NCBI GenBank assembly: GCA_964478245.1
Contig: CAYZHB010000001.1
Span: 43,249 to 107,248 of the forward strand
DNA: 64,000 nucleotides
From: an uncultured Desulfobacterales bacterium
GTDB lineage: Bacteria; Desulfobacterota; Desulfobacteria; Desulfobacterales; Desulfobacteraceae
Direction: 5' to 3'
Position numbers and translations under genes: made by a program. Numbering within the stretch: position 1 is the first letter of the stretch; the number at the start of each line of letters is the position of its first letter. The notes below the pieces were generated by a model that saw nothing but the letters and a program-made list of their open reading frames with translations, was not told the DNA's origin and ran no database searches. Below are positions 2,184 to 58,896 of this stretch, piece by piece.

Positions 2184-2334
2184 GTGACGGCGCAAAACAT
2201 ATTGACATCCGCGCGATGTCAGGATAGCGTAGGCAAAACAAAAAAGATCAGCGTTTCAATTGGTGACGGTTGGCCGGGGGCAATAGCACGCCGTTTGAAA
2301 ACAGCCGATAAGAGAATGTGAGAGGGAGAACAAT

Positions 2335-3855
2335 ATGCCCGGAACAGTACGGATCGGATTTGCCGGAACCGATGCGCGGACACTGCTGAGTGCCCTGACG
2401 GTCTCCACCGCCAGGAGCAACGGCTCGGATACGGATTTTAAAGGGGTCGTGATACGGGGCACATCCGCGATGCCGAAATTTGCCCAAAAGGATATCATGG
2501 ATTGGGATGTCGAATTTGTATCAACGGCGGACAATTCGGCTGAATCCTATGCAACCGCTATTGCCCAGGCGCTTGAAAACGGGGCGCTCGATTATGTGGT
2601 GCCCATGCCCGAAGGGCTTATTTTCAACGGTATTGTCGACATGGTTGCCGAATCGGGTATGGCCGACCGGGTCGCCGGTTTTACAAAGGCAGGGGCCTTT
2701 ATCGAGGGGGATAAAATCGCCTGCAAGAAGCTTTGCCGGGAAGGCGGCATTTCTGTGGCAGATCAGTGGGACGTTGTGGATGCCAAATCCTATCCGGATG
2801 TGCTTTCCGTATGCCTGGACTATATTCACCGGTACGGCGGGGCGGTTTTGAAATATCCCTACAGCGCCGGCGGAAAGGGGGCGCGGGTGATCCTCAACAC
2901 ATGGGAAATCCGGGAAGTTTACGATAATCTTCTCTCCGACTATAAAAAAGATTACAAAAAAGCCTTCAAAAGCGGTGAGTGGCCGCTGCTCATCGAATCC
3001 AGGATGTCCGGGGTCGAAATCAGCTTTACCATCCTTGTGGACGGGAAGGGCAACTACCGGGTCCTGCCGACTTCCATGGATTATCCCGAACGGTTCAGCG
3101 GCACGGCGGACCGCAGCAATCCCATCACCGGCGGAATGGGCAGCATCTCGCCGCATCCGTTTGAAAGCGCCGATCTGGTGGAGATGGCGGAGAAGACGAT
3201 TGCCGACCCCCTGGTGAAAATCTTACGGGACAAAAGACTATTGCGTCCCTGTATCCTTTATCCGGGCTGCTTTGCCTCTTTCAGGCAGCACCAGAATGAA
3301 CTGGTTCCAGCTTCACTCCGGGTGTGTGAGATCAATATCCGACCGGGAGAACCGGAATTTCAGACTGTTGTTCGGCGGCTGATGAACCCGGGTGCACTGT
3401 TTGAAGCCATGTTTTCAGGCCGTCTTGACCGGGTGGCGCCCGAAGTGAGGGAAGACCAGATATCCGTCTGTACAGCTCTGGTGACGGGACCCGGCGGGCC
3501 GGACGGACAGAAGGGATACCCGTGGCGGGTGACCAAATACGAACCCGTGATCATCGATTTTGCCTATCTCAGGAAAAAGAGCATCCAGTTGATCCCGGCG
3601 GCCATGGGGTATACCGAATCGGATGGATTTTTTTCCGACGGCACACGGGTGGCCTATCTCAATGCGAATTCATCGTTTAAAGAGGCGTCACAGCGTAAAG
3701 AGACGGCGGAAAAAATCAGAAACAGACTTCTGAACGCATTCCATCAGCACAAGGTACGGGTGGTGCCCAGGGAGGATCCGGACGGCAACCGCCTGGCGCT
3801 GAGGGAGGACATCGGGGGTCACTTTGCCGTTGCAGAAAGGGTAGGCGGCCGGTAA
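2335..3855 (+). CDS. ATP-grasp enzyme, PurD (GAR synthetase)-like but non-canonical
   Basis: 506 aa. An ATP-grasp-like core (LKYPYSAGGKGARVI..., SRMSGVEISFTILVDG, GGMGSISP) resembles PurD. The N-terminus lacks the canonical GSGGREHA motif, and the protein is ~80 aa longer than typical PurD. Confidence 0.5.
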   Translation: MPGTVRIGFAGTDARTLLSALTVSTARSNGSDTDFKGVVIRGTSAMPKFAQKDIMDWDVEFVSTADNSAESYATAIAQALENGALDYVVPMPEGLIFNGIVDMVAESGMADRVAGFTKAGAFIEGDKIACKKLCREGGISVADQWDVVDAKSYPDVLSVCLDYIHRYGGAVLKYPYSAGGKGARVILNTWEIREVYDNLLSDYKKDYKKAFKSGEWPLLIESRMSGVEISFTILVDGKGNYRVLPTSMDYPERFSGTADRSNPITGGMGSISPHPFESADLVEMAEKTIADPLVKILRDKRLLRPCILYPGCFASFRQHQNELVPASLRVCEINIRPGEPEFQTVVRRLMNPGALFEAMFSGRLDRVAPEVREDQISVCTALVTGPGGPDGQKGYPWRVTKYEPVIIDFAYLRKKSIQLIPAAMGYTESDGFFSDGTRVAYLNANSSFKEASQRKETAEKIRNRLLNAFHQHKVRVVPREDPDGNRLALREDIGGHFAVAERVGGR

Positions 3856-4218: not shown

Positions 4219-4986
4219 ATGAGTTGGCTTGGTAAAATGGTCGGCGGTACAATCGGTTTTGCCATAGGCGGCCCTATCGGTGCCATTGCAGGGGCGGCAT
4301 TCGGCCATACGTTTGACAAGAAGGAGAAAAAATATCTGGGATATGACGAGGCTGCGTTTCATGACAGACTTTCCAATACAGAAGAAGCCCAGCTCACTTT
4401 TTTTATTGCCGCCTTTTCCATGCTTGCCAAAATCGCCAAGGCAGACGGCAGGGTTACGGATAAAGAGATAGCCTCTGTTGAAAGCTTTATGCGGCATGAA
4501 CTCAATCTTTCCGGCGAGAGTATGAAAACCGCTCAGAATATTTTCAGGGAGGCGGTTCACTCGAATGAAAGCTTTGAAGATTTTGCCAGACAGCTTTACG
4601 GCGTGTTCAGAACCCAGCCGCGCCTGATTGAACTGATGATGGATGTCCTGGTGCGGGTCTCCGCAGTCGACGGCAAGATAAGCCCGGAAGAGGAGGCCCT
4701 GCTGCATAAGGCAGCCGAAATATTCAATATATCGGAACAGGCGTATGCAACCTTCAAATCGAAATATGTCAGGGATGTGAACCGGTACTACGCCCTGCTC
4801 AACTGTGATGAGAGCTGGTCTGACGAGCAGATCAAAAAGCAGTACCGGAAGATGGTATCGGAATACCATCCGGATAAAATAGCAGCCAAAGGCCTTCCGG
4901 AAGAGTTTGTCAAGTTTGCCAATGACAAGTTCAGGGAGATACAGGAGGCCTGGGAGCAGATCAAGAAGGAGCGGGGCATCGACTGA
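4219..4986 (+). CDS. djlA: Co-chaperone DjlA-like (N-terminal Gly-rich anchor, TerB-like middle, C-terminal J domain)
   Basis: MSWLGKMVGGTIGFAIGGPIGAIAGAAFG N-terminus, a TerB-like ADGRVTDKE/VDGKISPEE repeat pair, and a C-terminal J domain with YHPD. GGAGGA lies upstream of the ATG at 4219. Confidence 0.8.
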   Translation: MSWLGKMVGGTIGFAIGGPIGAIAGAAFGHTFDKKEKKYLGYDEAAFHDRLSNTEEAQLTFFIAAFSMLAKIAKADGRVTDKEIASVESFMRHELNLSGESMKTAQNIFREAVHSNESFEDFARQLYGVFRTQPRLIELMMDVLVRVSAVDGKISPEEEALLHKAAEIFNISEQAYATFKSKYVRDVNRYYALLNCDESWSDEQIKKQYRKMVSEYHPDKIAAKGLPEEFVKFANDKFREIQEAWEQIKKERGID

Positions 4987-5001
4987 CTTTTTGTACGGCT
5001 T

Positions 5002-6057
5002 TCAGAGAAGTCCTTTTTCCTTTGCAATGTTCATGTAGGTCTCGACAATATTGGCGGGCGGTTCCCACCTTTCCGAATCCGTCTTCGATTTCAGCGATAT
5101 GCTTTCAAATTCGCATGCGGTCACGCACACGCCGCAGCCGATGCACCTGTCGGTGTTGACCTGTGCATGGTCCGTCATGGTTATCGCTTCCATGGGACAG
5201 ATGTCGCTGCAGGCTTCACAGGCCGTGCACGTCTCGGGGTCGGCCTCGGCGAAATAGCTGGTGTTGACAATCCGGGCCGGCTTTTCGCTGGTCTTGATGT
5301 TTTTCAGGATCTGACAGCAGCAGCCGCAGCACATGCAGATGTTGATCGGTTTTTTGGCGTTTCCCGGCTGCAGCACGAGACCGTGCTCAATGCCCTTGTG
5401 GAGGATGTCGAGCGCCTCTTTCTGTTCAATGGTTCGGCCGATACCCCTTTCTTCGTAAAAGTAGGCACCGGTTCCGAAAACCAGACAGGTTTCAATCGGC
5501 TTGCCGCAGCCTTCGCCGATCATCTCGTGCTCTTTCCGGCATATGCAGGGGGCCACAACGATTTTTGACTGGGCCTTGATAATGTCTTCGGCTTTTTCAT
5601 AATCCATGATATTCATGTCCGCACTCACGGCTTCTGAAACCGGTATTACCCTGAGCTGCTGTGTTTTCTGCTTTTTCTGCTCTTCCATGAGATAGGGGAC
5701 GTACTCGTTGAAAAGCCCGATCAGTTCCCTGTCAAGTGATTCCACCTGGTATTCCCAGATCCCGACAACGAACTGGGCCTGCATATAGGTGTCCATACCC
5801 CCTTTGGTCGAGTGAACAGCCAGACCTTTTTGCACCATGGTTTGCAAAACCGGCAGGAGAACATCCACGTCCCATCCGATACGCGATGCGATCGTTTCCG
5901 CTGTTTCCGGCATCATGATCAGATGCAGCGCTACCTCGGCTTCCTGTTCGGTGAAAAGTTTTTCAAGTATTTTGAGTTCAACCCCGGAAGGGGTGGGGGG
6001 GAAACCGCCCGGTGTATTCCTGAGATGGTCAGCCAGTTTGGTGTAGATATCGCTCAT
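5002..6057 (-). CDS. Fe-S protein: N-terminal wHTH-like region, CCGCCC cysteine cluster, C-terminal 2x[4Fe-4S] ferredoxin motifs
   Basis: ICMCCGCCCQIL, then CTACEACSDICP and CIGCGVCVTAC. It is a paralog of 51201..52547. It overlaps the mtaB stop by 29 nt. Confidence 0.65.
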   Translation of the reverse strand: MSDIYTKLADHLRNTPGGFPPTPSGVELKILEKLFTEQEAEVALHLIMMPETAETIASRIGWDVDVLLPVLQTMVQKGLAVHSTKGGMDTYMQAQFVVGIWEYQVESLDRELIGLFNEYVPYLMEEQKKQKTQQLRVIPVSEAVSADMNIMDYEKAEDIIKAQSKIVVAPCICRKEHEMIGEGCGKPIETCLVFGTGAYFYEERGIGRTIEQKEALDILHKGIEHGLVLQPGNAKKPINICMCCGCCCQILKNIKTSEKPARIVNTSYFAEADPETCTACEACSDICPMEAITMTDHAQVNTDRCIGCGVCVTACEFESISLKSKTDSERWEPPANIVETYMNIAKEKGLL

Positions 6058-9574: not shown

Positions 9575-10612
9575 TCAATTCCTCTTTTGCCGGCATCGAA
9601 TGCCGGTTGTTATTATTTTATCTGTGCCGGTCCATATGGCGCCGGTATCCCAGGTGTGGAACTTCAGGTTGAGGGTGACCGCCTGCCGGGGACTTTTTAA
9701 TAAAAAATAGGAAATCGCGGAAGGGGCTTCAGCACTGTAACCATAGACACACTTAATGCCCTTGTTGCCGTGAAGCGTTTGAAATTTTGCCCGACGGACA
9801 AGGGTGTGATACTGGTCCTGTTTTACCGTTCGCGCCAGTTTTGCTTTATACGCGTTCACCTTGCACACGAAATCAGCCAGCGATACTGTCGTGTTTCTGG
9901 ATTCGATGGAGACGGATAGAGAACACTGGGGTCCCAGAACCGTGTCAGGCGAATGAAATTCCCAATGAGCGGGCAAATCCAGGCTGATACCCGCATCTCT
10001 GAAGGATATGGTTTGCAGAATATCGACGGTTTCGGTATTTTCGGCTGTTCCCTCAGGATAAGGAAGTGCATATTCCTCAATTTCATCTCTTGATGTGGGG
10101 GAGAGTCTGTAATAAAAGTTCCGCCTGATAATTCGGCCGGCCCTGTTTTTTCGGGTGTAGTGGTAACGGTAACCGTCTATGCGGCCGTTTTGAAGAAGAA
10201 AGGACTCTTTTTCTTCTTCTTCAGGTGTGCTTCTGTCTATCAGCCATATTTTGTTTTTTTTCATGCACAGATTGTGATGGTTTCTGATCAACCGTGCCTC
10301 ATAAAGCAAGGTTGATTCACCGGCAGCCGCACGCCAGTGAACGAGTGCCAACTCCCCGGCCTCAATCCCCTCGAATCCGCCTTTAACCAGTTCGAGAAAC
10401 CGGATGTCAGGACAGGGATTGTACAAACCACGGTTCAATTTACATTCTGCTTGAACAACCCGGTATACCCCCAAATGGTTTTCAATGTCGTATGCGTGTG
10501 CAAAAGGACGGACAGGAAGCAGCATCATTACAAACACCATAAGGGGGGCCGAGAAAATACAAAAGCGCCTGATTCCTGTTGTCATGGGATCCCTTTTTAT
10601 CTGTTTAAGCAT
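9575..10612 (-). CDS. Hypothetical exported protein
   Basis: 345-aa ORF with an N-terminal hydrophobic segment (FCIFSAPLMVFVMMLLPVRPFAHA). It lies 4 nt upstream of the lipoprotein gene. No recognisable domain. Confidence 0.5.
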   Translation of the reverse strand: MLKQIKRDPMTTGIRRFCIFSAPLMVFVMMLLPVRPFAHAYDIENHLGVYRVVQAECKLNRGLYNPCPDIRFLELVKGGFEGIEAGELALVHWRAAAGESTLLYEARLIRNHHNLCMKKNKIWLIDRSTPEEEEKESFLLQNGRIDGYRYHYTRKNRAGRIIRRNFYYRLSPTSRDEIEEYALPYPEGTAENTETVDILQTISFRDAGISLDLPAHWEFHSPDTVLGPQCSLSVSIESRNTTVSLADFVCKVNAYKAKLARTVKQDQYHTLVRRAKFQTLHGNKGIKCVYGYSAEAPSAISYFLLKSPRQAVTLNLKFHTWDTGAIWTGTDKIITTGIRCRQKRN

Positions 10613-10631
10613 GCTGATCGCTGCCGGTGAT

Positions 10632-10785
10632 GGGTCGTTTCCAAACCGGTGACGATGCTCCTGTAATTACCGTCACCGATTGAAACACTGACGTGTTTAT
10701 GTTTTTCCGGCTATGCATAGCCTGGCTCGCCAGAGATGCGAATGCACACACGTCAAGCCACCCGCTTCGTGGGTGGTCGTTGACT
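10632..10785 (+). repeat. Family-1 multi-hairpin repeat, divergent copy A
   Basis: Shares GATTGAAACACTGACGTGTTT, TTCCGG, AAGCCACCCGCTTCGTGGGTGGTCGTTGACT with the other copies. The first hairpin is replaced by a different perfect stem (CGGTGACG...CGTCACCG), and there is a ~25-nt insertion before the last hairpin. Confidence 0.7.
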
Positions 10786-11195: not shown

Positions 11196-12083
11196 ATGTC
11201 AGTCTTGTTACGCAATGGTTTGCTGGTATTCCTTTTGACGATGGTTTTTCTCCTCTTTTCGGCACCGGCTGTCTTTGCCTGCGGCGGCGGCGGCGGCGGT
11301 GGAGGCGGCGGCGGAGGGGGTGATAAATTTGATGATGATCAGGTTTCCGAGAGCAATTCACCGCCTCCCGGTTTTTCTGAAACGGGTTTTGATGTGGGTT
11401 CGGACGCGAGCTATGCAGAGGGGGAAACCTCGGATGCAGATGAACTCACCGACCAATTTCTGGAGGAATTCGGGCTGGGCGGGGAAATCGGCTTGCCTGA
11501 TCCGTCAACAGGTTCAGTCGGTTCTTCTGAGACCACCGGTTCTGTGGAGAGCTCAGTTGAAGAGGAGATTACACAGCATGCGCTGGAACAGGAGGAAAAA
11601 GAGGAGGCCCAAACGCAGCAAGCCGCAGCCGACGAGGAAAGAGAGCAGGAAAGGCTGGAGCGGTACAACAATTATATCAGCAAGCTGCCTGAGAAGGCGC
11701 GGCACGGTTTAACGCGCCGGGAACTCATGGGATATGCCCAGATAAATGAATGGAGAGAAAAGGGCGTGCCCGAGTCTGTTATCCGGCAGGAACTGGACAG
11801 GCTCACCGAACAGATTGCCCAGAGGAGAAAAAAATCAAAGGAGCGGTTCGAACGGGCCCATGAAGATGCCAACTGGATCGCGAAACAGATGGTAAGTATG
11901 CAAATACATTTCCTGACCGGTGGTTCCTTTTTTGCCGGTTTGGCTTTCAATGTCGCAACAGAAGGGGAAAAGGGCGCCGCAAATTCAATTGCAACACAGG
12001 CGGTCACCTCCCGGCTTCCGGGCGGAAATGCCGCCACAAGAGCGGCTGTAAGTCAGGTTGTCTCGAATGTGGTGAACGAATAG
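11196..12083 (+). CDS. Exported/lipo-protein with Cys29-(Gly)13 mature N-terminus, acidic low-complexity and coiled-coil regions
   Basis: MSVLLRNGLLVFLLTMVFLLFSAPAVFAC-GGGGGGGGGGGGG-DKFDDD... AGGAGG lies upstream of the ATG. It is paralogous at the N-terminus to 12890..13420. Confidence 0.65.
   Translation: MSVLLRNGLLVFLLTMVFLLFSAPAVFACGGGGGGGGGGGGGDKFDDDQVSESNSPPPGFSETGFDVGSDASYAEGETSDADELTDQFLEEFGLGGEIGLPDPSTGSVGSSETTGSVESSVEEEITQHALEQEEKEEAQTQQAAADEEREQERLERYNNYISKLPEKARHGLTRRELMGYAQINEWREKGVPESVIRQELDRLTEQIAQRRKKSKERFERAHEDANWIAKQMVSMQIHFLTGGSFFAGLAFNVATEGEKGAANSIATQAVTSRLPGGNAATRAAVSQVVSNVVNE
11283..11321 (+). repeat. (GGN)13 trinucleotide tract encoding poly-Gly
   Basis: ggc ggc ggc ggc ggc ggt gga ggc ggc ggc gga ggg ggt, in frame immediately after the TGC (Cys29) codon. 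Confidence 0.9.
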
Positions 12084-12294: not shown

Positions 12295-12750
12295 TTGTAC
12301 CCCGCTTATCCCGCCCCTCATTATGTGTTACCGGCATTAAGGGATAAACCCGAAGATATCAGGGAACTTGCCGAATATTTTGTTCAAACCTACTGTCGGG
12401 CGTTTAACAAACCGGTCTTGAACATCACCCGGGAAGTTCTGAATGTGTTAAAACATTATGCCTGGCCGGGGAATGTAAGAGAGTTGAAAAACGTTATGGA
12501 AAATATCGTTATCACCTGTGATCAATCCCATATTGCCGTGGAGAATTTACCCGAGACAATATATGGCGAGGATAAACCGCTGGATCTGCAGGAAACGGAA
12601 ACCCGGAACCTTGACATGGCAGCACATGAACGCAGCCTGCTTCTGGCCGCTTTGAAAAAAAGCGGCTGGAACCAGTCCAAGGCCGCCAGAGAACTCTGTA
12701 TTACCCGAAGCGCCCTTGGCTACCGCCTTCAAAAATACGGTATTAAATAA
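12295..12750 (+). pseudogene. Truncated sigma-54-dependent (NtrC/Fis-family) transcriptional activator: only the end of the AAA+ domain plus the Fis-type HTH
   Basis: VLPALRDKPEDIRELAEYF...WPGNVRELKNVMEN...and C-terminal NQSKAARELCITRSALGYRLQKYGI. There are no Walker A/B, GAFTGA or receiver/sensor parts. The ORF opens with a TTG inside non-coding-looking repeats. Confidence 0.7.
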
Positions 12751-12889: not shown

Positions 12890-13420
12890 ATGTCAAGACT
12901 TATTCGCAAATCCGTGTTGGTTTCTGCTTTGATTTTAGCGGTCATGCTGTATGTGACACCGGCTGCATTCGCCTGCGGCGGCGGCGGTGGCGGTGGCGGT
13001 GGTGGCGGAGATTCAAAAAGTGAGGACGATTCCGCCGTATCGGTCAGTATCGGCGGGGCCCCTTCTGATATCGATCCCGGTGCCTCGGGCACAAGTTCAT
13101 CCCCTTCTCAAGGCGATCCGTCCGCCAGCCCGGACACGGTCCATATCGCCGGGTGGCAGGTTGACAGGGCCGATATTGACGCCCAGATGGAAGAAGAGAA
13201 AATGACGGAAAACATCCAGAGCCTGATCAATTTCATGGATGAAAATTCCGGGGCGGATGCGGTTGATAAGGAGATACAGGAACTGGCTTTGCAGACCATC
13301 ACAGCGACTTATTTGCACGTTCGGTTAACCCGCCCGGACGCAACCCACCAGGAGGCCATGCTGGCGGCTGTAACAATCTGCAACTTCAGGGCTTCTTTTA
13401 TAAACGACAACTCTTATTAA
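12890..13420 (+). CDS. Exported/lipo-protein with Cys29-(Gly)11 mature N-terminus (paralog of 11196..12083)
   Basis: MSRLIRKSVLVSALILAVMLYVTPAAFAC-GGGGGGGGGGG-DSKSEDD... AAGGAG lies upstream of the ATG. A possible sigma-70 promoter is TTGACA (12816-12821), 17 nt, TAAGAT (12839-12844). Confidence 0.6.
   Translation: MSRLIRKSVLVSALILAVMLYVTPAAFACGGGGGGGGGGGDSKSEDDSAVSVSIGGAPSDIDPGASGTSSSPSQGDPSASPDTVHIAGWQVDRADIDAQMEEEKMTENIQSLINFMDENSGADAVDKEIQELALQTITATYLHVRLTRPDATHQEAMLAAVTICNFRASFINDNSY
12977..13009 (+). repeat. (GGN)11 trinucleotide tract encoding poly-Gly
   Basis: ggc ggc ggc ggt ggc ggt ggc ggt ggt ggc gga, directly after the TGC (Cys29) codon. Confidence 0.9.
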
Positions 13421-21837: not shown

Positions 21838-21908
21838 GATGTCATCATTCCTTTGAAAAACAGTCCTGCTTTTTAACAGGGGATTTACTCCAGACGCTTT
21901 TGTTGTGA

Positions 21909-22036
21909 TTGGTTGTTTTCAAACCGAGGGCTATGCCCCCGGTTACAACCGTCAACGATTGAAACACTCGTGTGTTTCGTCATTCCGGCCTATGGCCGGA
22001 ACACCAAGCCACCCGCTTCGCGGGTGGTCGTTGACT
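21909..22036 (+). repeat. Family-1 multi-hairpin repeat, copy B
   Basis: TTGGTTGTTTTCAAACCGAGGGCTATGCCCCCGGTTACAACCGTCAACGATTGAAACACTCGTGTGTTTCGTCATTCCGGCCTATGGCCGGAACACCAAGCCACCCGCTTCGCGGGTGGTCGTTGACT. Confidence 0.9.
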
Positions 22037-22091
22037 AAATAATAATTCAGATTGAAAAACTGTTACAATTTGATTACACTAAACACGTCAA

Positions 22092-22220
22092 TCGGTTGTT
22101 TCAAAACCGGGGGCTATGCCCCCGGTTACAACCGTCGACGATCGAAACACTGACGTGTTTTTGTTCTTCCGGCCTGCGGCCGGAAGAACAACCCACCCGC
22201 AAAGCGGATGGTCGTTGACT
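22092..22220 (+). repeat. Family-1 multi-hairpin repeat, copy C
   Basis: Same architecture, 55 nt downstream of copy B. The third hairpin is extended to 12 bp (GTTCTTCCGGCC/GGCCGGAAGAAC). The closing helix carries an A-to-G change that gives a G-T (G-U) pair. Confidence 0.9.
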
Positions 22221-22283
22221 CTGATAGATAATTAAATAAAATATATAAGTATATCATTTTTTTCTGTTTTGTCAACATGCATT

Positions 22284-23010: not shown

Positions 23011-23064
23011 GGTAATTTTATTTGAACGGGTCACCTGCCCATGGCATAGAACAAATTAGCCGTG
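23011..23064. repeat. Family-2 repeat, short copy b (arms only)
   Basis: GGTAATTTTATTTGAACGGGTCACCTGCCCATGGCATAGAACAAATTAGCCGTG. The left and right arms match the ends of copy c, and the interior is missing. Confidence 0.5.
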
Positions 23065-29988: not shown

Positions 29989-30261
29989 CAGGTCGCCTTG
30001 AAAAGGAAACTTTTCACTTCGGTTACGGCCTCGCGGCCTGCAGCCTGCACGAAAAAGCCTTTTCGCCGCTCCCGGCACCCTTCCCTCTGAATTGGCGGGC
30101 CAATCATCTTGCCGTAACACAATGCATGGTTGAAGACCGTTATTTTCACTTGTTGCCTAAGGCCGGAAGGCAGGTACGTAAGCGTTTCAATCGGTGAGGA
30201 TTGCAAACAGGCGGGCGGTGGACCACGCCCTGATTTGAAAACAGCCAATAAAAGGAGGTGT

Positions 30262-32268
30262 ATGATGCAAAAATCAATTTTAAGCGGGATGGTTTTTTTA
30301 AGCTTTTTATTTACATTTTTTTTCTTTTATAGTGCGGTCCATGCAGCGGAGGTGTATATGCCGCACATCACCGGGGGCTATCCGGAATGGGTGGACTACC
30401 TCCAGGTGAACAATGGGGACGCGGAAGCTCATGATTTTACCGTTACGCTTTACAGCGAGGGCAGCGAAGTATACTCAGGCGCTCATACCGTGGCCGGGTA
30501 TGGTCATGAACAGATCGAGATCAAGTCCCTTGACAGTACGGCGGACAGTGGTGAGATAGTGTATACAAGCGATGCGCTGATGTTCCGGGTGTCCTACGCG
30601 TACACCGCCACCGGCGGGGTGGCGGAATTCGCCCTGTCGGACACGGTGAGTTCCGCCATGGGACTTTTATACAGCGGTTTTGTCTCGTCCGTCAACTACA
30701 AGGGGGCGGCCATCGCCAACATGAGTGACACACCCGCCTATGTGACGCTCTACGCCATGGGGGACGGGTCGATTATTGACACGTATTCCGCCACGCTCGG
30801 CGCCCGTGAGAAGATCCTGGGCAACCATGAAGCGTGGTTTCCGACCGTGGCGTTTGCCGACATCGAGAGCATCGTGGCTGTCTCGACCGAGCCGGTGTTG
30901 TCCGGCCTGGTTATCTGTACGGATGCGGATCTTTCCTACCTGCTGTTCACGCCGGGCAGGGATGTGCCGTCATTTGACACCACTGGTGCCCCTGATGTGG
31001 CCTCATGGGCGTTCACCGCCGGCGGGAGCGAAGCGGATGAAAAAGGCCGTCATGTTTGTCAGACACCTGACGGCGGGTTTGTCGTGGCCGGTGTCTCCGC
31101 CTCTTACGGTGAGGGCAATAATGACATGTGGATATTGAAACTTACCGCTTCCGGCAGTATCGACTGGCAGAAAACATACGGCGGCCCGAGCAATGATATG
31201 GTAGAAAGTATATGCACCACGGCTGACGGCGGGTATGTGATGGCAGGTCATACCGGGTCCTTCGGCAGCGGGGTATACGATTTGTGGGTTCTGAAGCTCG
31301 ACAGTGACGGAAACTGTGAGTGGCAGAAGGCCTACGGCGGCAGCGATTCAGACATGGGATACAGCCTGCGCCCGACGTCAGACGGCGGTTACGTGATAAC
31401 GGGACGGACCTATTCCTATGGCGCCGGCGGGTCCGATCTGTGGGTATTGAAACTGAACAGCACCGGCGGTGTCGATTGGCAGAAGACATACGGCGGTGTT
31501 TACGGCGACTATGGAGAAAGTATCCGCCAGACGTCAGACGGCGGTTATATTGTTGCGGGTTCTACAAGGTCCGCTGGTGCCGGCGAAACAGACATCTGGG
31601 TATTGAAGCTGGACGAGTCCGGTGTTGTCGACTGGCAGAAAACATATGGCGGCAGTTCCTATGACAGGGCGTACAGTGTCTGTGAGGCGTCGGATGGCGG
31701 GTTTGTCGTGGCGGGTCAAACCTATTCCTTCGGCGCAGGCAATTTTGATCTCTGGGCATTGAAGCTGGACGGTTCAGGTGATATCGAATGGGAGAAGACA
31801 TACGGCGGAACCGATTATGAAGAGGGAACCTCCGTATCCCGGACAATTGACGGCGGTTATATCGTTACAGGTTATACCGCTTCCGCTGGTGCCGGAGAGA
31901 CGGACATCTGGGCATTGAAACTGAACGGTTCCGGGGGTGTCGACTGGCAGAAAATCTGCGGCGGCAGTGATAATGATGTGGGATTCGGGCTTTGTGAGAC
32001 AACGGCAGGCGGTTATGTGGTGACAGGTGAAACTTATTCGTACGGGGCAGGGGAGTCCGATCTCTGGGCCTTACGACTTGACAGCTCGGGTGATCTGCCG
32101 GGATGCAGCGGCATCAGCCTGACGGACACCGCACTGTCGTCAGCAGATTCGGCCTGCACGCCGGCAGATTCATCTGTTTTTGCATCTTCGAGTCCGGCAG
32201 CAGTGGAAACGACAGCTGTGGCAGGCAGTCTCACCGATGCCGAAGTGACGTTCCAATGTCCGGACTAG
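30262..32268 (+). CDS. Secreted protein: unknown N-terminal domain plus 7-bladed beta-propeller-like repeat domain
   Basis: ATG at 30262 after AAGGAGG gives the signal peptide MMQKSILSGMVFLSFLFTFFFFYSAVHA. It is followed by seven 52-aa repeats, W(Q/E)KTYGG...DGGY.V.G.T.S.GAG..D.W.LKL...G. Confidence 0.75.
   Translation: MMQKSILSGMVFLSFLFTFFFFYSAVHAAEVYMPHITGGYPEWVDYLQVNNGDAEAHDFTVTLYSEGSEVYSGAHTVAGYGHEQIEIKSLDSTADSGEIVYTSDALMFRVSYAYTATGGVAEFALSDTVSSAMGLLYSGFVSSVNYKGAAIANMSDTPAYVTLYAMGDGSIIDTYSATLGAREKILGNHEAWFPTVAFADIESIVAVSTEPVLSGLVICTDADLSYLLFTPGRDVPSFDTTGAPDVASWAFTAGGSEADEKGRHVCQTPDGGFVVAGVSASYGEGNNDMWILKLTASGSIDWQKTYGGPSNDMVESICTTADGGYVMAGHTGSFGSGVYDLWVLKLDSDGNCEWQKAYGGSDSDMGYSLRPTSDGGYVITGRTYSYGAGGSDLWVLKLNSTGGVDWQKTYGGVYGDYGESIRQTSDGGYIVAGSTRSAGAGETDIWVLKLDESGVVDWQKTYGGSSYDRAYSVCEASDGGFVVAGQTYSFGAGNFDLWALKLDGSGDIEWEKTYGGTDYEEGTSVSRTIDGGYIVTGYTASAGAGETDIWALKLNGSGGVDWQKICGGSDNDVGFGLCETTAGGYVVTGETYSYGAGESDLWALRLDSSGDLPGCSGISLTDTALSSADSACTPADSSVFASSSPAAVETTAVAGSLTDAEVTFQCPD
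31009..32100 (+). repeat. Seven tandem 156-bp coding repeats
   Basis: The repeat register is marked by TGGCAG/TGGGAG at 31165, 31321, 31477, 31633, 31789 and 31945, an exact 156-nt period. Confidence 0.9.
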
Positions 32269-32306: not shown

Positions 32307-32457
32307 CGGCTAATTTGTTCTACGGGTCACTTTTGGACAGGCAGGTGGCGGGGTGCTTTCTATGCCGGTCACCTCGGAGCAGCCCGGGATGGGCTGCGAG
32401 ACTGAGGCAGAGGAAGTTCCCCGCCACCTGCTGATAGCATAGAACAAATTAGCCGTG
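32307..32457. repeat. Family-2 long-hairpin intergenic repeat, copy c (full length)
   Basis: Outer arms are CGGCTAATTTGTTCTA (32307-32322) and TAGAACAAATTAGCCG (32440-32455). Inner arms are CAGGCAGGTGGCGGGG and CCCCGCCACCTGCTG. Confidence 0.7.
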
Positions 32458-32604
32458 AAATAGATGAAAGACAATTGCTTTACCGGCTCAAATTTGATAT
32501 GTATACCTATTTCGATACGGAACGCCGGGGTGCTTGGCCAACCTGTCAGAAATCGGTTGCGACACCGGTCCCGACACGCAATCCGTGGAAACAAGGAGTT
32601 GAAT

Positions 32605-34077
32605 ATGGCGGACAAAAATTATCAGGAAGGGCTGGCATTCGACGATGTCCTTCTTTTGCCGGGGTTGTCTGAAGTGCTGCCCGATGAAGTGGATACGGCC
32701 ACCAGGCTTACAAGGAATCTCGATTTGAATATACCCATTGTCAGCGCGGCAATGGATACCGTGACCGAAGCTCGCACGGCAATCAGTATGGCCAGGGCGG
32801 GGGGACTCGGTTTTATCCACAGGAACATGAGCATTGAAGAGCAGACCACTGAAGTGGACCGGGTGAAGAAATCCGAAAGCGGCATGATCGTGGATCCGGT
32901 CACCATTGATCCGGACACCCTGATTTCGGAAGTGCTGGAGATCATGTCAAAGTACCGGATCTCCGGGGTGCCGGTCACTGAGGGAGATACCCTTGCCGGG
33001 ATTGTCACCAACCGGGATCTCAGGTTTGAAACCAACCTCAGCAAGCCGGTAAAAGAGGTCATGACGTCGGAAAACCTGATCACTGTTCAGGAAAAGTGTA
33101 CCCTGGAAGAGTCGAAAAAACTGCTCCACGAGCACCGCATTGAAAAACTGCTGGTGGTGGACACAGGCGGCAAACTGAAGGGGCTTATCACCATAAAGGA
33201 TATTGAAAAGATCAAGAAGTATCCCAATGCCTGCAAGGATTCCATGGGACGTCTCAGGACAGGCGCCGCCATCGGGGTGGGACCGGATTTCATGGAGAGG
33301 AGTGAAAGTCTCTTGAAAGCCGGTGCGGATGTCCTGGTGATCGATACTTCCCACGGCCATTCCCGGAACGTTCTCAAAGCGGTGAAGAAGATAAAGGGAG
33401 AGTTTGCCGACTGTGAACTCATAGCCGGGAACGTGGCCACGGCCGAAGGAGCCAGGGCGCTGGTCAACGCCGGAGTGGACGCCGTAAAAGTCGGTATCGG
33501 GCCGGGCTCCATCTGTACCACCCGGATCGTAGCGGGTGTCGGCGTGCCTCAGCTCACCGCCGTTATGAACTGCCGGGAAGTTTCCGACAGGACCGGGGTG
33601 CCGTTAATAGCGGACGGCGGGATCAAATTTTCCGGTGATATTGCAAAAGCCCTGGGGGCAGGCGCTCACTCGGTCATGCTCGGCAGCCTTCTGGCCGGTA
33701 CCATGGAAAGCCCCGGTGAAATTGTCATATACCAGGGAAGGAGCTACAAGGCTTACCGGGGAATGGGATCTGTGGAAGCAATGAAGAAAGGCAGCAGTGA
33801 CCGGTATTACCAGAAAGAGAGTGTGGACAGTGATGATCTTGTACCGGAAGGTATCGTGGGACGGATTCCCTACCGCGGCACCGTCACCGAAAACCTGGTT
33901 CAGATGGTAGGGGGTGTCAAAGCGGGAATGGGCTACGTCGGAGCCGGTAACATTCTCCAGCTGAGAAAAAAGGCAAAATTTGTCAAAATCAGCGCCGCGG
34001 GCTTGCGGGAAAGTCATGTCCACGATGTTGTCATCACCAAGGAAGCGCCGAATTACAGTGTTGACAGCCCCCAGTAA
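32605..34077 (+). CDS. guaB: IMP dehydrogenase
   Basis: The ATG at 32605 gives [20 protein letters not shown]. There is a CBS pair and [11 protein letters not shown]. The listed ORF start at 32464 lies inside the repeat and is rejected. Confidence 0.95.
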
Positions 34078-43409: not shown

Positions 43410-46400
43410 TTACCTTCTCCATATTGCTTCAATATCGTTTCTCGAAAGTCCGGCCATTTTCATGCCCATATCCCTGTACAGCACAATCTGCAGATCATCG
43501 GCAAACATGCGGGCATCCGCCTTTACATACGGTTCGGGCGCGTATCCCATTTCTTTCACTTCCACGTAATAACCGGCCTTTCGGGTGTCGCAGGTGACAG
43601 GCCCCCTGCATTTCAGATCGCTTTCAAACCCTTCAACAATATCCCAGTGGATATCGTCCCGTTCCGATATCCACCCCATCCGCAGTGTGAATATTCGCAA
43701 GGCGTGGGCGCAGCATTCGTACATCAGCGTGCCCGGCATTACCCTGTCATCGGTAAAATGGCAAGTCAAAAACCAGTGATCCGGACGGATATCCGCCTGG
43801 GCCGTGATCGCCCCGAGGCGGAAACGGCCGCCTTCCGGCTCGAAAAGGGTGACCCGGTCGATCAGGTGCATGCGGCCGCCGGGAAGCCGCAGTCCCCTGC
43901 CAAGCGTACACCCGTCAAATTTTTTTCCGAAGGCCTGTGACAGGTTCCCGCTTCTCAGGGCGTTTACCTGCTGATCGTCAAACGCGGCGTTTCGGGCCCT
44001 GGCGGGCGGAAGCCATGGTCTGCCGCCGAACGATTTTCTTTTTTCATTCTGTTTCAGTACGATGCCCTGGGAATTTTGTATCTCCTCCGGGGTAAAAAAA
44101 CCGGCACACCCGTCCCGCATGGAGATAAAGGGGGCGCCGTCAATGTAGCCGCGGTAGTGGAAAAAGAAGAGGTACACGTCCTGCTGTTTTAAAAACCGGT
44201 CGATCTCGATGTGGAACTCGATCGTCTCGCCGGGAACGGGGAGCGGCCGGTGAAAAGTGACTTTGGCATCGAGCAGCCGGTACCGCCTTTTTCCCTGTAC
44301 CGCGTGGTCGATTCCCAGATAGGAACACAGGAAAAGATCGGCCTGACCGGCCTCGATGGATATGGACACCGGTGCCCGGCCGCCGTCAAGATACCAGGCA
44401 TCCGCTTTGACATCATGCTGGGTGATGATTTTTCCGCTGGAAAGGGAACACATCTCGCCTTCGATGGCCATTATCCGGTCAACGAGCATGAGCGGTTCAT
44501 CCGGCAGTCTCACCCGCACCGGATAGGAGTCAACGATGTGAAATCTCTCTCCCAGAACGGTGGCCGCTTTGCCGGTGGCGAACGCCATGCACATGTCGCG
44601 GTCAAACAGCGGTTCCTGCCGGGAATTTTTTTTCCCGGCAGGGGCTGAAGCCACTGCTGTGTCATCTGTCGCAGCTGAGCCTTCTGCCGCAGCTGCAGGT
44701 CTGTTGTGCTCGGAAAGGATGGCATGTTCCGCTGCCATATTGTCTGTCAGGCGGCCGGCGATACGCGTCAAGGCCTGGAACTGGACTTCACAGGCAGCCA
44801 TGTTGTCCCGGGTGAGGGCAAGAAATTTTTCGTGCAGGCCGGCGCAGGAGAGTGTTTCTGAAAGATTTTCAATGGCGATGGCGTCCGGCGTCCCGGCTGC
44901 GGCGGCTGAAGCAAAATTTTCGGCATTGATGCTTGTGGGGTCAGCTGCGCCGGTTACTGGGCCAGCATTCACACCGGGGGTTGCTGTGGTTTTTTCCCGC
45001 CGGGATGGCGTCACTTTGAAATAGGGGCCCAGGTCCACATCCACCCCGTTTGCGGCCAGTTTTGCAAGGCCCTTCAAAAAAGCGGTTCCTTCGGATGCCT
45101 CTCCGGAAGAAAGAGAGACACTCAGGTGTTCCTCTGATGCCAGTGTTTTCCCGACCAGCCGGCTGCAGGAAGCGCCGGGACCGATTTCAAGGAAAATCCG
45201 GACATTGTCCCGCCAGGCGTTTTGAATGAGGGCGGAATAATCAAATCCGTGCAGCGCCTGTTGGAGTATAAGTTCCGCCGTTCTCTCTTCCTCGGGTACA
45301 TAGCGCTCCCCCAGAAAGCAGGAATAGAAATCGATATTTGGATCGGGGCGGCATTCGAACCGGTGAAGATCCCGGTATGCCGGGGCCGCTTCCTGTGCCA
45401 CGGGACAATGCACGCTGACCACGCCTTCGAGGAACATGGCACCGCACCCCGTGTCCTTTATAAATCGGCGAACCGCGGTCTCCTCCCCGCCGATTACCGT
45501 CTCTTCAGGCGAGTTCACGATGAGCAGATACACCCGTTCGTATGAATTGATGCGTTTCCGGATTGCTTCTTCAGAGCGGTTTACCGCGGCGGCAACCCAT
45601 CTGACAGGTTCTTTCGGTCCCATTTGCCAGACCTTTCTTGCAAGGGAAAGGTCGCCGGAAAGTTTGTGGGTGAAAAGATCGGTATTTTCCATGCGGCGGC
45701 GCATGGCCCCGGCATCCGGCCAGACGCCGAGAGACAGAAGCATGGCCGATTCGCCCAGGCTGTGACCCATGGCGGCATGCGGAGCAATGTTAAACCGTGA
45801 GGCAACGGCGGTCATGAGGATGCCGTAGGCGATCTGACCGAATATCATGTGGTGGGGGTTTTCCCGGATATTTTGCCGGGCGTTTTCCTGCCAGTCTTTG
45901 TCCCACGAGAGACGCCAGGGATAGTAAAGATGGGGCAGAAACATCTGTTTCAGGGAATGCCCTTTTTCTGCCATCTCCTGCAGTATGTCCGGAAACATGA
46001 GACCGAGCTCCCGGCCCATCTGCAGGAAGTGGTTGCCGGAGCCGGGGTACAGAAAGGCAAGCTTTCCCTGTCCGGCCATGGGCGTAAGGGTGTATGCCAC
46101 CCCCTGGTCTTCCTTGATGTCAGTCGACTCTCCCTGTCTGACGGCGCGTTCGGCCCTGTCGAGCCAGGAAAGCAGGTCGGCCGTACTGTCGGCCACAATG
46201 GAAAGGGTGTGCGGCATACGGGGTTGGTCCGATGTATCGTCGTACCATTTTTTGGCGGCGACATAAACGCTGCCGGTTCCGGCGAACTGTCGTAACCGGT
46301 GGATTTCGCATATAAGCGCCGGCTCACTTTTCCCCCGGAGGATAAAAATGCCGCGCTTCTGAAAAGGCAGTGTGAACCGGTCCGTTTCCCGGCAGGTTGT

Positions 46401-52547: not shown

Positions 52548-52624
52548 GGCTGTTGTAATCTTTTGACCAAAACTGCATGCGGAACAGCTGCGGGCGTTTT
52601 TTCCTGACAGGGAAAGGCCGGTTA

Positions 52625-52730
52625 TTGGTCGTTTGAAACCGGGGCCGTGCCTTCGGTTTCAACCGTCAACGATTGAAACACTTGACAGAGATAAAAGCGG
52701 CGGGTCTGGCGTCTCGAGATGGTCGTAGCT
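52625..52730 (+). repeat. Family-1 repeat, degenerate copy D
   Basis: TTGGTCGTTTGAAACCGGGGCCGTGCCTTCGGTTTCAACCGTCAACGATTGAAACAC, followed by a diverged 3' part that ends GATGGTCGTAGCT. Confidence 0.55.
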
Positions 52731-54847: not shown

Positions 54848-54996
54848 GGTATGGTCACATCCTTTCTCTTTTATCCATACTGTAAAAAAACTTTTGGCAA
54901 TTGTCAAAAAGATTGACCCGGCAAATGTTTTTTCCACTTGATCCTTGTGACCAGATCGGTCATCATGGACCCGGCAGATGGATACGGAGGGATTAT

Positions 54997-55458
54997 ATGA
55001 CCACAATTCTCGTGATTTACCATTCCCAGAGCGGGAATACCGAAAAAATGGCCGCGTCCGTGGCAGAGGGCGCGACAAGTGTGGAGAACGCCGAGGGTGT
55101 TCTCAAAAAAGCCGGCGATGCAACCATTGAAGACCTGAGGGCCTGTGACGGTATCGCCATCGGGTCCCCCGAGTATTTCGGATACATGGCGGGCATGATA
55201 AAGGATTTTTTTGACCGGACGTACACGACGGTGTCGGCGGATTCAAATGCGTTCAGAAAGCCGTATGTGGTGTTTGTCAGTGCCGGGAACGACGGTCGGA
55301 ACACCCTGGTCCAGATTGAACGCATTGTGAAAGGTTTTCCTTTTAAAAAGGTGTATGAGCCTGTTATTTCAAGAGGAGAGATCAAAGCGGATATTTTGTC
55401 CAGTTGTTTTGAAATGGGGCAGACAATTGCGGCCGGCTGTGATATCGGTATTTATTAG
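54997..55458 (+). CDS. Flavodoxin-fold (WrbA/NADPH-dependent FMN reductase-like) protein
   Basis: ATG at 54997 after GGAGGG. TILVIYHSQSGNTEKMA, then GSPEYFGYMAG. Confidence 0.75.
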   Translation: MTTILVIYHSQSGNTEKMAASVAEGATSVENAEGVLKKAGDATIEDLRACDGIAIGSPEYFGYMAGMIKDFFDRTYTTVSADSNAFRKPYVVFVSAGNDGRNTLVQIERIVKGFPFKKVYEPVISRGEIKADILSSCFEMGQTIAAGCDIGIY

Positions 55459-55582
55459 TTGTTTTCAAACCGGGGGCTATGCCCCCGGTTACAACCGTCA
55501 ACGATTGAAACACTCGCGTGTTTCGTCATTCCGGCCTATGGCCGGAACGCCAAGCCACCCGCTTCGCGGGTGGTCGGTGACT
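55455..55582 (+). repeat. Family-1 multi-hairpin repeat, copy E
   Basis: Near-identical to copy B. The TAG stop (55456-55458) of the flavodoxin gene lies within the first nucleotides of the repeat. Confidence 0.9.
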
Positions 55583-57962: not shown

Positions 57963-58061
57963 AAAAGGAGTTGATTTTTTTGGGGGATTTATATAACCTG
58001 AATCTGAACAGATACCGTTACCGTATATTCATACGAATAGCCAGAGTCAACGACCACTTTA

Positions 58062-58190
58062 TTGGTTGTTTCAAAACCGGGGGCTATGCCCCCGGTTACA
58101 ACCGTCAACGATTGAAACACTGACGTGTTTTTGTTTTTCCGGCCTACGGCCGGAATTCCAAGCCACCCGCTTTGCGGGTGATCGTTGACT
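58062..58190 (+). repeat. Family-1 multi-hairpin repeat, copy F
   Basis: Full-length copy. It is additionally preceded at 58045-58057 by AGTCAACGACCAC, the reverse complement of the family 3' terminus. Confidence 0.9.
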
Positions 58191-58434: not shown

Positions 58435-58657
58435 CCGAAACCTGACGCCTGCAGTCGGATAAAAGGACGTCGGAAACACGTACAGTACAAAAGAAACACA
58501 CCGCTGTTTATGGTTGCCGGCGGGGGAAACCGCGCTGCCGTGTTTCCGGGTCCCGCTGACCGTGAAAAAAAGACAGGAAGGGGGATTTAACCCCACCTGC
58601 TTTAAGGGTCGTCGTTGAATTCGGCATCTGCAGGAAACCCCTTAAAGGAGAGGTAAG

Positions 58658-58867
58658 ATGGCGATAGCAAAAAAAGCATATGTGAAAAGATCGCCAGTTG
58701 ACCGCAGATCTCCCGTTGATAGAAGAATCGTAAACCACGGTCCTGTTTATCCGCATTCGGAGCGCCGACACAATACAAAGGACAGAAGGGTGGGATGGGA
58801 AGACAGGGAAGGCTGGAAAAGAATAAGCAAGTGGAGCAGTGCGCCGGACAGCTGGGATTTTGTATGA
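58658..58867 (+). CDS. Small basic protein with (S)PVDRR repeats
   Basis: AAGGAGAGG RBS. KRSPVDRRSPVDRR...KDRR... No known domain. Confidence 0.45.
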   Translation: MAIAKKAYVKRSPVDRRSPVDRRIVNHGPVYPHSERRHNTKDRRVGWEDREGWKRISKWSSAPDSWDFV

Positions 58868-58896
58868 TTGGTTGTTTTCAAGGCAGCTGTTGACTC
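58868..58896 (+). repeat. Family-1 repeat, 29-nt mini copy G (5' end joined to 3' end)
   Basis: TTGGTTGTTTTCAA followed by GGCAGCTGTTGACT. It begins at the nucleotide after the TGA stop at 58865-58867. Confidence 0.5.

Follow-up and report, generated by a model that had tools for sequence, protein, structure and literature searches.

The divergent spacer between the genes for elongation factor EF-G and RsmG, in a 64,000-nt stretch of contig CAYZHB010000001.1 from an uncultured Desulfobacterales bacterium (the whole stretch, hereafter the window), holds two adjacent copies of a hairpin-rich element. This locus raises the question of what such an element is and how it came to lie there. A reading made from the letters and open reading frames (ORFs) of the window, the sequence-only reading, had made two proposals: a family of structured RNAs, or a REP/MITE-like element under selection for its fold (REP, repetitive extragenic palindrome; MITE, miniature inverted-repeat transposable element). 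Our analysis favors the second proposal: the element probably belongs to a family of ~131-nt non-coding, non-autonomous interspersed repeats of the REP/BIME/MITE kind (BIME, bacterial interspersed mosaic element), present in uncultured Desulfobacterales-like bacteria and spread by mobility. Selection on the fold received modest support, and the idea of a free-standing RNA gene did not hold up.

Copies and anatomy of the repeat

Three approaches served to call copies in the window, namely a repeat finder, nhmmer and a covariance model (R1), and they agree on five full copies. One degenerate copy of full length adds to these, as do two partial copies, diverged and in minus orientation; with the smaller pieces, namely a relic of the 3′ end, a mini copy of 32 nt and an inverted 13-nt fragment of one end, the total reaches 10-11 copies or fragments by nhmmer and the covariance model (Table 1); the sequence-only reading had counted at least seven occurrences in 64 kb. 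Every position listed in that reading holds a true copy by these approaches, including its 29-nt mini copy and its possible relic at about 58560-58620. The list was correct as far as it went, but it overlooked the two minus-strand partials and the fragment at 58046-58058. The 21-nt core of the element is matched eight times in the window, against 0.04 matches expected by chance.

Table 1. Copies and fragments of the element in the window, with the promoter-like site of the EF-G spacer (R1, covariance model)
Feature	Position	Strand	Support
Diverged partial copy, 5′ 80 nt	2233-2311	-	nhmmer E = 2.4e-10
Copy A, variant subfamily	10628-10785	+	87 bits (R1)
Copy B, full length, subfamily 1, EF-G/rsmG divergent spacer	21906-22036	+	153 bits (R1)
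Copy C, full length, subfamily 2, 52 nt downstream of B	22089-22220	+	144 bits (R1)
Promoter-like site TTGACA-16-TATACT toward EF-G	22248-22275	-	11 of 12 consensus positions, plus TG
Second diverged partial copy	30148-30253	-	nhmmer E = 1.5e-9
Copy D, degenerate full-length	52622-52730	+	25.8 bits (covariance model); nhmmer E = 6.6e-13 for 52619-52683
Copy E, full length, subfamily 1	55452-55582	+	150 bits (R1)
13-nt inverted 3′-end fragment AGTCAACGACCAC, 3 nt before the 5′ end of F (58059)	58046-58058	-	weak nhmmer match at 58042-58057
Copy F, full length, subfamily 2, ending 32 nt upstream of the dodecin gene	58059-58190	+	156 bits (R1)
3′ relic, hairpin 4 and terminal GTTGAAT	58583-58621	+	nhmmer E = 0.009; member of repeat family D5
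32-nt mini copy, 5′ terminal 17 nt fused to 3′ terminal GTTGACTC	58865-58896	+	sequence and flank table

At least three subfamilies are represented in the window: B/E, F/C and A. Pairwise identity reaches 95% for B/E, and also for B and a copy in a foreign contig, L003, while it amounts to 88.5% for B/F, 88% for F/C and 82% for B/C. The earlier wording of near-identical copies thus applies to B and E but overstates the likeness of C to B. Similarly, B and C do form an adjacent pair, but since they belong to different subfamilies they point to two independent insertions rather than to a tandem duplication. Copy A has the alternative hairpin 1 already noticed by the sequence-only reading, and fold prediction places a ~45-nt insert of small hairpins where hairpin 3 would be; protein P0121, encoded on another contig, contains the translation of a variant resembling it. 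Hairpin 3 of copy C is lengthened to 12-13 bp by fold prediction, also as first read. In copy D, homology is clear over the first ~65 nt only and the 3′ part has decayed, its 3′ end, GATGGTCGTAGCT, being still similar to the consensus end.

The unit is a fixed mosaic of ~131 nt. From its 5′ end, TGATTGGTTGTTTTCAAA, it runs through hairpin 1, which has two tiers, and then through three short hairpins, rich in G+C and with loops of 3-4 nt, to the end GTTGACT(C). Complementary arms, (GT)CAACGA and TCGTTG(AC), lie on either side of the three inner hairpins, which are enclosed by a ~8-bp closing helix downstream of hairpin 1. The borders run from TGATTGGTTG... on the hairpin 1 side to ...GTTGACT(C), the right end being also written ...GGTCGTTGACT, and they are sharp, since unrelated contigs are alike only over the same ~131-136 nt. 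The full architecture, which the sequence-only reading had drawn in the same form, is the minimum-energy fold of B, C, F, the L003 copy and every foreign copy. With z-scores of -7.4 (plus strand) and -8.2 (minus strand), this fold is far more stable than that of shuffled sequence. The closing helix is mismatched in three of six near-intact copies, namely A, the L003 copy and E, where the mismatch is an A-G. Outside the stems, the segments TGATTGGTTGTTTTCAAA (5′), CAACGATT, CCAAGCC and TCGTTGACT are unpaired and conserved.

Regarding the ends, the stem of hairpin 1 begins ~5 nt from the left end and that of hairpin 4 stops ~8 nt short of the right end, the two stems differing in sequence. The left border reads T-(G/T)-A in 13 of 16 copies, and this triplet may belong to the target or to the element. 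Its TGA form and the TGA within GTTGACT do not co-vary between copies. Terminal inverted repeats are absent, the 5′ end, aligned in its best register to the reverse-complemented 3′ end, giving 10 matches out of 30, and no direct repeats indicative of target-site duplication appear in the flank table of the 16 copies. Codon periodicity is also absent (diversity per phase of 0.163, 0.155 and 0.161), and a protein-coding module was rejected for this reason.

Copies beyond the window were sought by several routes. Exact-pattern scans of public genome, metagenome and viral collections with the core ACCGTCNNCGATYGAAACACT returned L003 as the sole real match, the other 18 loci being chance matches. 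This pattern was too strict, as foreign copies lack the T in CCGTCAAC. BLAST searches of phages and plasmids and scans of viral contigs gave no copy, and a six-frame concatenated peptide query against a word-indexed protein database gave P0121 only. When one open-frame translation of copy B was compared exhaustively with 1.84 billion representative proteins, seven ORF calls emerged that are translated diverged copies. The contigs of five of these led to loci L024-L030 (L026 and L027 being the same), each with one copy scoring 98-132 bits against R1. Further copies, which the sequence-only reading had proposed to look for beyond this locus, are therefore known on seven independent contigs: L003, L024, L025, L026/L027, L028, L029 and L030. 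The G+C content of the L024-L030 contigs ranges from 44 to 62%; their common sequence is confined to the ~131-136 nt of the element, at 78-92% identity, and the sites are non-orthologous.

Some of these copies lie inside genes. In L003, a contig of a metagenome-assembled genome, the copy is inserted in frame, as 43 codons, in a CobB-like protein, within the variable linker that joins the CbiA domain to the GATase_3 domain; homologues are 45-65 residues shorter. A loop change from TAT to TCT removes the TAG that is present in that frame in B and E. In L024, the copy lengthens the ORF of a membrane protein of the DUF418 family. Overall, at least eight database proteins translate the repeat wholly or partly (P0121, P0242, P0243, P0245, P0246 in its C-terminus, P0247, P0249 and P0250), and these are spurious ORF calls or ORF extensions.

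Occupied and empty sites

The EF-G/rsmG spacer allows an occupied site to be compared with its counterpart in other genomes. Apart from one identical NCBI protein, the best matches of the window EF-G come from Desulfobacteraceae and Desulfotignum and are at most 83% identical. The relatives whose EF-G is 82-83% identical share the gene order PK-holA-lgt-lspA-ileS-rsmG<>EF-G, and neither nhmmer nor the covariance model detected the element in their rsmG/EF-G spacer. Once the elements are removed, the window spacer measures ~148 nt, matching the ~130-nt leader of the relatives, and the stretch between B and C resembles the middle of their spacer.

A promoter-like site directed toward EF-G (Table 1) overlaps the start region of rsmG. 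It has an orthologue in the relative L022, at positions 9836-9863 (+), with the pattern TTGACA-16-TAT(A/T)(C/A)T and TG. By its sequence this site probably acts as the EF-G promoter. If it is used, B and C would lie inside the EF-G leader as reverse complements, and the predicted leader would reach ~405 nt in the window compared to ~130 nt in relatives, a difference accounted for by B plus C.

The genes flanking the window copies are mutually unrelated. They encode radical SAM and ATP-grasp proteins, EF-G and RsmG, pyruvate kinase and a beta-propeller protein, a ferredoxin-domain protein and a rhomboid protein, a flavodoxin-like protein and a DUF7847 protein, a dodecin, and an epimerase. In transcripts, about six copies (A, B, C, D and the two on the minus strand) would appear as the reverse complement of the written form, with their 5′ ends 8-80 nt from the start of a gene reading away. 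The diverged copy at 2233-2311 has its 5′ end 23 nt from the ATG of the gene 2335..3855, and the 5′ end of the copy at 30148-30253 abuts the ribosome-binding site of the gene starting near 30262. Four or five copies, among them E, F, the relic and the mini copy, are co-oriented with flanking genes. The TAG stop of the flavodoxin-like ORF 54901..55458 falls in the 5′ end of copy E, and the first triplet of the mini copy is the TGA stop of the small ORF 58658..58867.

The non-orthologous sites, the empty spacers of syntenic relatives, the copies inside ORFs and the very different G+C contents of the contigs support the REP/MITE-like alternative, and mobility would be the cause of this dispersal. 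The unit would spread to unrelated new sites, mostly intergenic and occasionally in frame within genes, by means of an enzyme supplied in trans that recognizes its ends and hairpins. Pairing in the stems would be kept by selection or by transposition requirements while the loops drift. The effects on the host, namely longer leaders as for EF-G, altered ORF ends and peptide inserts, would then be side effects.

Possible selection on the fold and candidate RNA functions

Covariation was analyzed in two sets of copies. The window copies with that of L003 showed no covariation above controls, their single doubly changed pair being matched by 269 of 500 shuffles. The sequence-only reading had described the variation as stem-preserving, and the window copies alone give this no statistical support. 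The broad set was composed of twelve full copies, foreign ones included, with 500 shuffles and slid alignments as controls. Five stem pairs with compensatory changes were found in it, all in hairpins 1-3: hairpin 1 has two in its outer stem and a third in the inner one (G-C, U-A, C-G), and hairpins 2 and 3 have one each, that of hairpin 3 via a U-G intermediate. Doubly changed cells numbered 14, compared to 5.6 +/- 1.6 in the shuffles, none of which reached 14, and to 1-2 in the slid controls. As neither hairpin 4 nor the closing helix displayed a covarying pair in any set examined, the four-way junction itself is putative. Nucleotide diversity is 0.10 in stems and 0.30 at unpaired positions, so that loops and linkers are three times more variable than stems, in agreement with the earlier statement that variation is concentrated in loops. 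Taken with the copies from other genomes, these alignments lend modest support to selection for the fold.

The same features would suit a structured RNA module located within host transcripts, in leaders or trailers, where it could act as an mRNA stabilizer, an exonuclease block or a protein binder, its spread being secondary. Compensatory changes and G-U intermediates in hairpins 1-3, stems threefold more conserved than loops and a fold that is very stable on both strands all speak for such a module. Most copies lie ~20-80 nt from gene starts or ends, so they are probably transcribed, and B and C fall within the predicted EF-G leader. On the plus strand, G-T mismatches exceed A-C mismatches (14 versus 7, artefacts removed), but this ratio is not significant and singles out no strand. 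We nevertheless consider a host RNA module unlikely. Orientation to the flanking gene is mixed, as about six copies would be read as the reverse complement and four or five in the plus form; the neighboring genes are functionally unrelated, and some copies lie inside coding regions. Neither an internal promoter nor a conserved upstream one is present, Rfam has no match, and the combination of freely varying 3-4-nt loops with perfectly palindromic stems is unlike most functional RNAs.

The cloverleaf-like four-way junction could also evoke a family of small RNA genes that stand alone, or a unit resembling a tRNA or CRISPR, and the weak Rfam match to CRISPR-DR15 goes in that direction. This match, however, scores 24.8 bits for a gathering score of 36, which is at chance level for the whole window, and the CRISPR-repeat reading was rejected on this ground. 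A tRNA or tmRNA was likewise rejected, as ARAGORN found neither. More generally, none of the 4227 Rfam models matched at its gathering threshold, sub-threshold matches being noise, which agrees with the sequence-only reading that no named family could be recognized. No promoter or terminator signature accompanies the element, and the helix closing the junction is often mismatched in addition to its lack of covariation. Given the absence of an internal promoter and the mixed orientation to genes, a free-standing RNA gene is extremely unlikely. Two regulatory roles were also examined and rejected: an outward promoter starting from the terminal TTGACT, because a matching -10 box exists in copy C only, and an intrinsic terminator, because no hairpin is followed by a proper T-run.

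Known repeat systems and the mode of spread

The family matches no Rfam family and no repeat in the literature searched. The family itself is new, but the kind of element is already well known, with REP/BIME, MITE, Rickettsia palindromic element, palindrome-associated transposable element (PATE) and bcr1-like repeats as examples. The REP/BIME of enterobacteria and pseudomonads, the CGTC-tagged REPs and the Neisseria NIME/dRS3 are likewise short, intergenic, G+C-rich hairpins in many copies, arranged as mosaics of palindromes with conserved linkers and with occasional copies inside genes (PMC3733652). The element differs from REP/BIME in having four different hairpins in one fixed order within a sharp-ended ~131-nt unit, kept at 78-92% identity across genomes of 44-62% G+C.

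A CGTC/GTAG REP unit is a palindrome of 20-40 nt in which an unpaired GTAG or CGTC (TGTC/CCTC) head is joined to a hairpin with 8-9 bp in the stem and 4-5 nt in the loop, and to a short tail; units are single or form inverted dimers, in high copy, and the associated gene for a REP-associated tyrosine transposase (RAYT) is flanked by the same repeats (PMC3733652). Hairpin 3 of the element can be written (C/T)GTC-N-TTCCGGCC-TAT-GGCCGGAA-NN-CCA, with an 8-bp stem starting TT/AA. Its head, stem and CCA tail fit a CGTC REP, but its loop has 3 nt instead of 4-5, and the other three hairpins carry no such tags. The covariance model and nhmmer found no isolated hairpin unit or head-to-head dimer in the window, the hairpins being always within the 131-nt unit, and no RAYT gene flanked by the repeats of the element is present in the window or in the L026 contig.

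This resemblance (PMC3733652) bears on another explanation, in which the hairpins or cruciforms are used by a host or phage protein, either as a binding or architectural site on DNA, as BIMEs are for gyrase or IHF, or as a dRS3-like recombination or integration target. The conservation of the unpaired segments TGATTGGTTGTTTTCAAA, CAACGATT, CCAAGCC and TCGTTGACT would be in line with it, and perfect palindromes would serve on either strand. Such a DNA site appears highly unlikely, given that neither a partner protein nor a linked gene was found, that copy number beyond the window is apparently low (one per 1-11-kb contig), and that, besides the shorter loop, units are never alone or dimeric.

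Bacterial MITEs such as Correia, ERIC, Chunjie and RUP are also ~130 nt long, non-coding, non-autonomous and mostly intergenic, with several subfamilies, truncated or internally deleted derivatives and insertions that fuse ORFs (PMC10969869). The element shares their short, non-coding, multi-copy nature and non-orthologous sites, but MITEs are defined by terminal inverted repeats and target-site duplications, and it has neither. The Rickettsia palindromic elements are hairpin repeats of ~100-150 nt that unrelated housekeeping genes can carry in frame without being destroyed (PMC10969869), a situation comparable to that of the CobB-like protein of L003. They differ in sequence and host taxon, and only 2 of the ~18 known copies of our element lie in ORFs, with no codon periodicity or sign of a conserved peptide.

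The bcr1 repeats of the Bacillus cereus group are interspersed, ~150 nt long and present in transcripts of neighboring genes, with a conserved multi-stem prediction, compensatory changes and a TTTAT target duplication. Size, multi-stem fold and compensatory changes are thus alike, while sequence and host phylum are unrelated and the duplication is absent here.

The PATEs derived from IS200/IS605 insertion sequences are comparable in their ends: they also lack inverted terminal repeats and target duplications, and have unlike ends, each with a subterminal hairpin (PMC10055086). Their ends match those of an autonomous insertion sequence encoding TnpA (Y1), insertion takes place 3′ of a 4-5-nt target motif, and excision is scarless (PMC10055086). 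A short left-border motif (T-G/T-A here) and a same-strand bias of intact copies are further points of likeness, all six well-kept window copies being on the G-rich plus strand (6:0). Based on these asymmetric ends with subterminal hairpins, the lack of terminal inverted repeats and target duplications, the left-border motif and the strand bias, our best specific guess, a speculative one as to both enzyme type and single-strand DNA mechanism, would be a "peel-and-paste" transposition by an HUH/Y1-type transposase. A bolder version would make the element the non-autonomous form of an undescribed HUH/Y1-type single-strand DNA transposon lineage of Desulfobacterota, whose right-hand part, with the four-way junction, doubles as a structured RNA (a guide-RNA-like scaffold or leader module). 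Although distinctly unlikely, this combination would, if true, explain why the fold is retained by compensatory change across genomes differing by nearly 20% in G+C. The Rfam models for IS605-associated RNAs do not match the element.

Several observations weigh against a mobile repeat or against this route of spread. The strand bias falls to 8:2 once decayed copies are counted, and orienting the foreign contigs by GC skew gives no clear answer on strand. The two end hairpins are dissimilar, unlike those of IS200/IS605 ends. The window encodes no transposase gene, and neither an autonomous version of the element nor a TnpA, TnpB or IscB partner was found in the sequences examined. The L026 contig does carry a RAYT-like gene at 4289-5324, 2 kb from its copy of the element, encoding a protein with Y1_Tnp and DnaA C-terminal domains (73.9 bits for an NCBIfam cut-off of 80). 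It was rejected as the partner enzyme, as the 30-nt inverted repeats AGGGGTCAAGTCTGC... that bracket it bear no relation to the element and do not occur in the window. No recent pair of empty and occupied sites with alignable flanks is available, so that precise insertion is putative. Concerning the fold, a measure robust to relatedness is marginal, with five doubly changed pairs compared to 3.2 and equalled by 35 of 500 shuffles; related sequences without structure can exceed a shuffle control, and the alignment itself was fitted to the model. Finally, the compensatory changes are equally well compatible with selection on an RNA.

If the favored reading of a mobile repeat is right, the mobilizing enzyme, once found, could reveal how "orphan" hairpin repeats such as the CGTC REPs spread. 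The family is noteworthy for a hairpin mosaic conserved across very different base compositions while the end features of classical transposons are missing. It extends the models drawn from Proteobacteria and Firmicutes with a small repeat that has no inverted repeats or target duplications and whose hairpins are kept by compensatory change. In practical terms, the repeat marks a lineage of uncultured relatives of sulfate reducers, breaks assemblies and creates spurious ORFs, and it can lengthen the leader of an essential gene (EF-G) or put a peptide into an enzyme (the CobB-like protein).

Other features of the window were recorded along with the element. A second small repeat family, with the core GCCACCTGCCC.TGGCATAGAACAAATTAGCCGTG, occurs at 2138-2183, 23032-23064 and 32412-32457, all three sites being intergenic; one copy adjoins the diverged copy at 2233-2311 and another stops 6 nt before the ATG of ORF 32464..34077. 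The DUF5122 beta-propeller-like protein encoded from ~30262 to 32268 contains six tandem repeats of 156 nt (52 aa) at 31069-32094, which are 63-74% identical. ORF 12295-12750 encodes no more of a sigma-54 activator than its C-terminal part, with AAA-lid and HTH_8, and may be a truncated or split gene, and the ORFs next to it carry glycine-rich GGC/GGT runs at 11277-11320 and 12974-13008. A very long ORF of 1898 aa occupies positions 43410-49106 on the minus strand.

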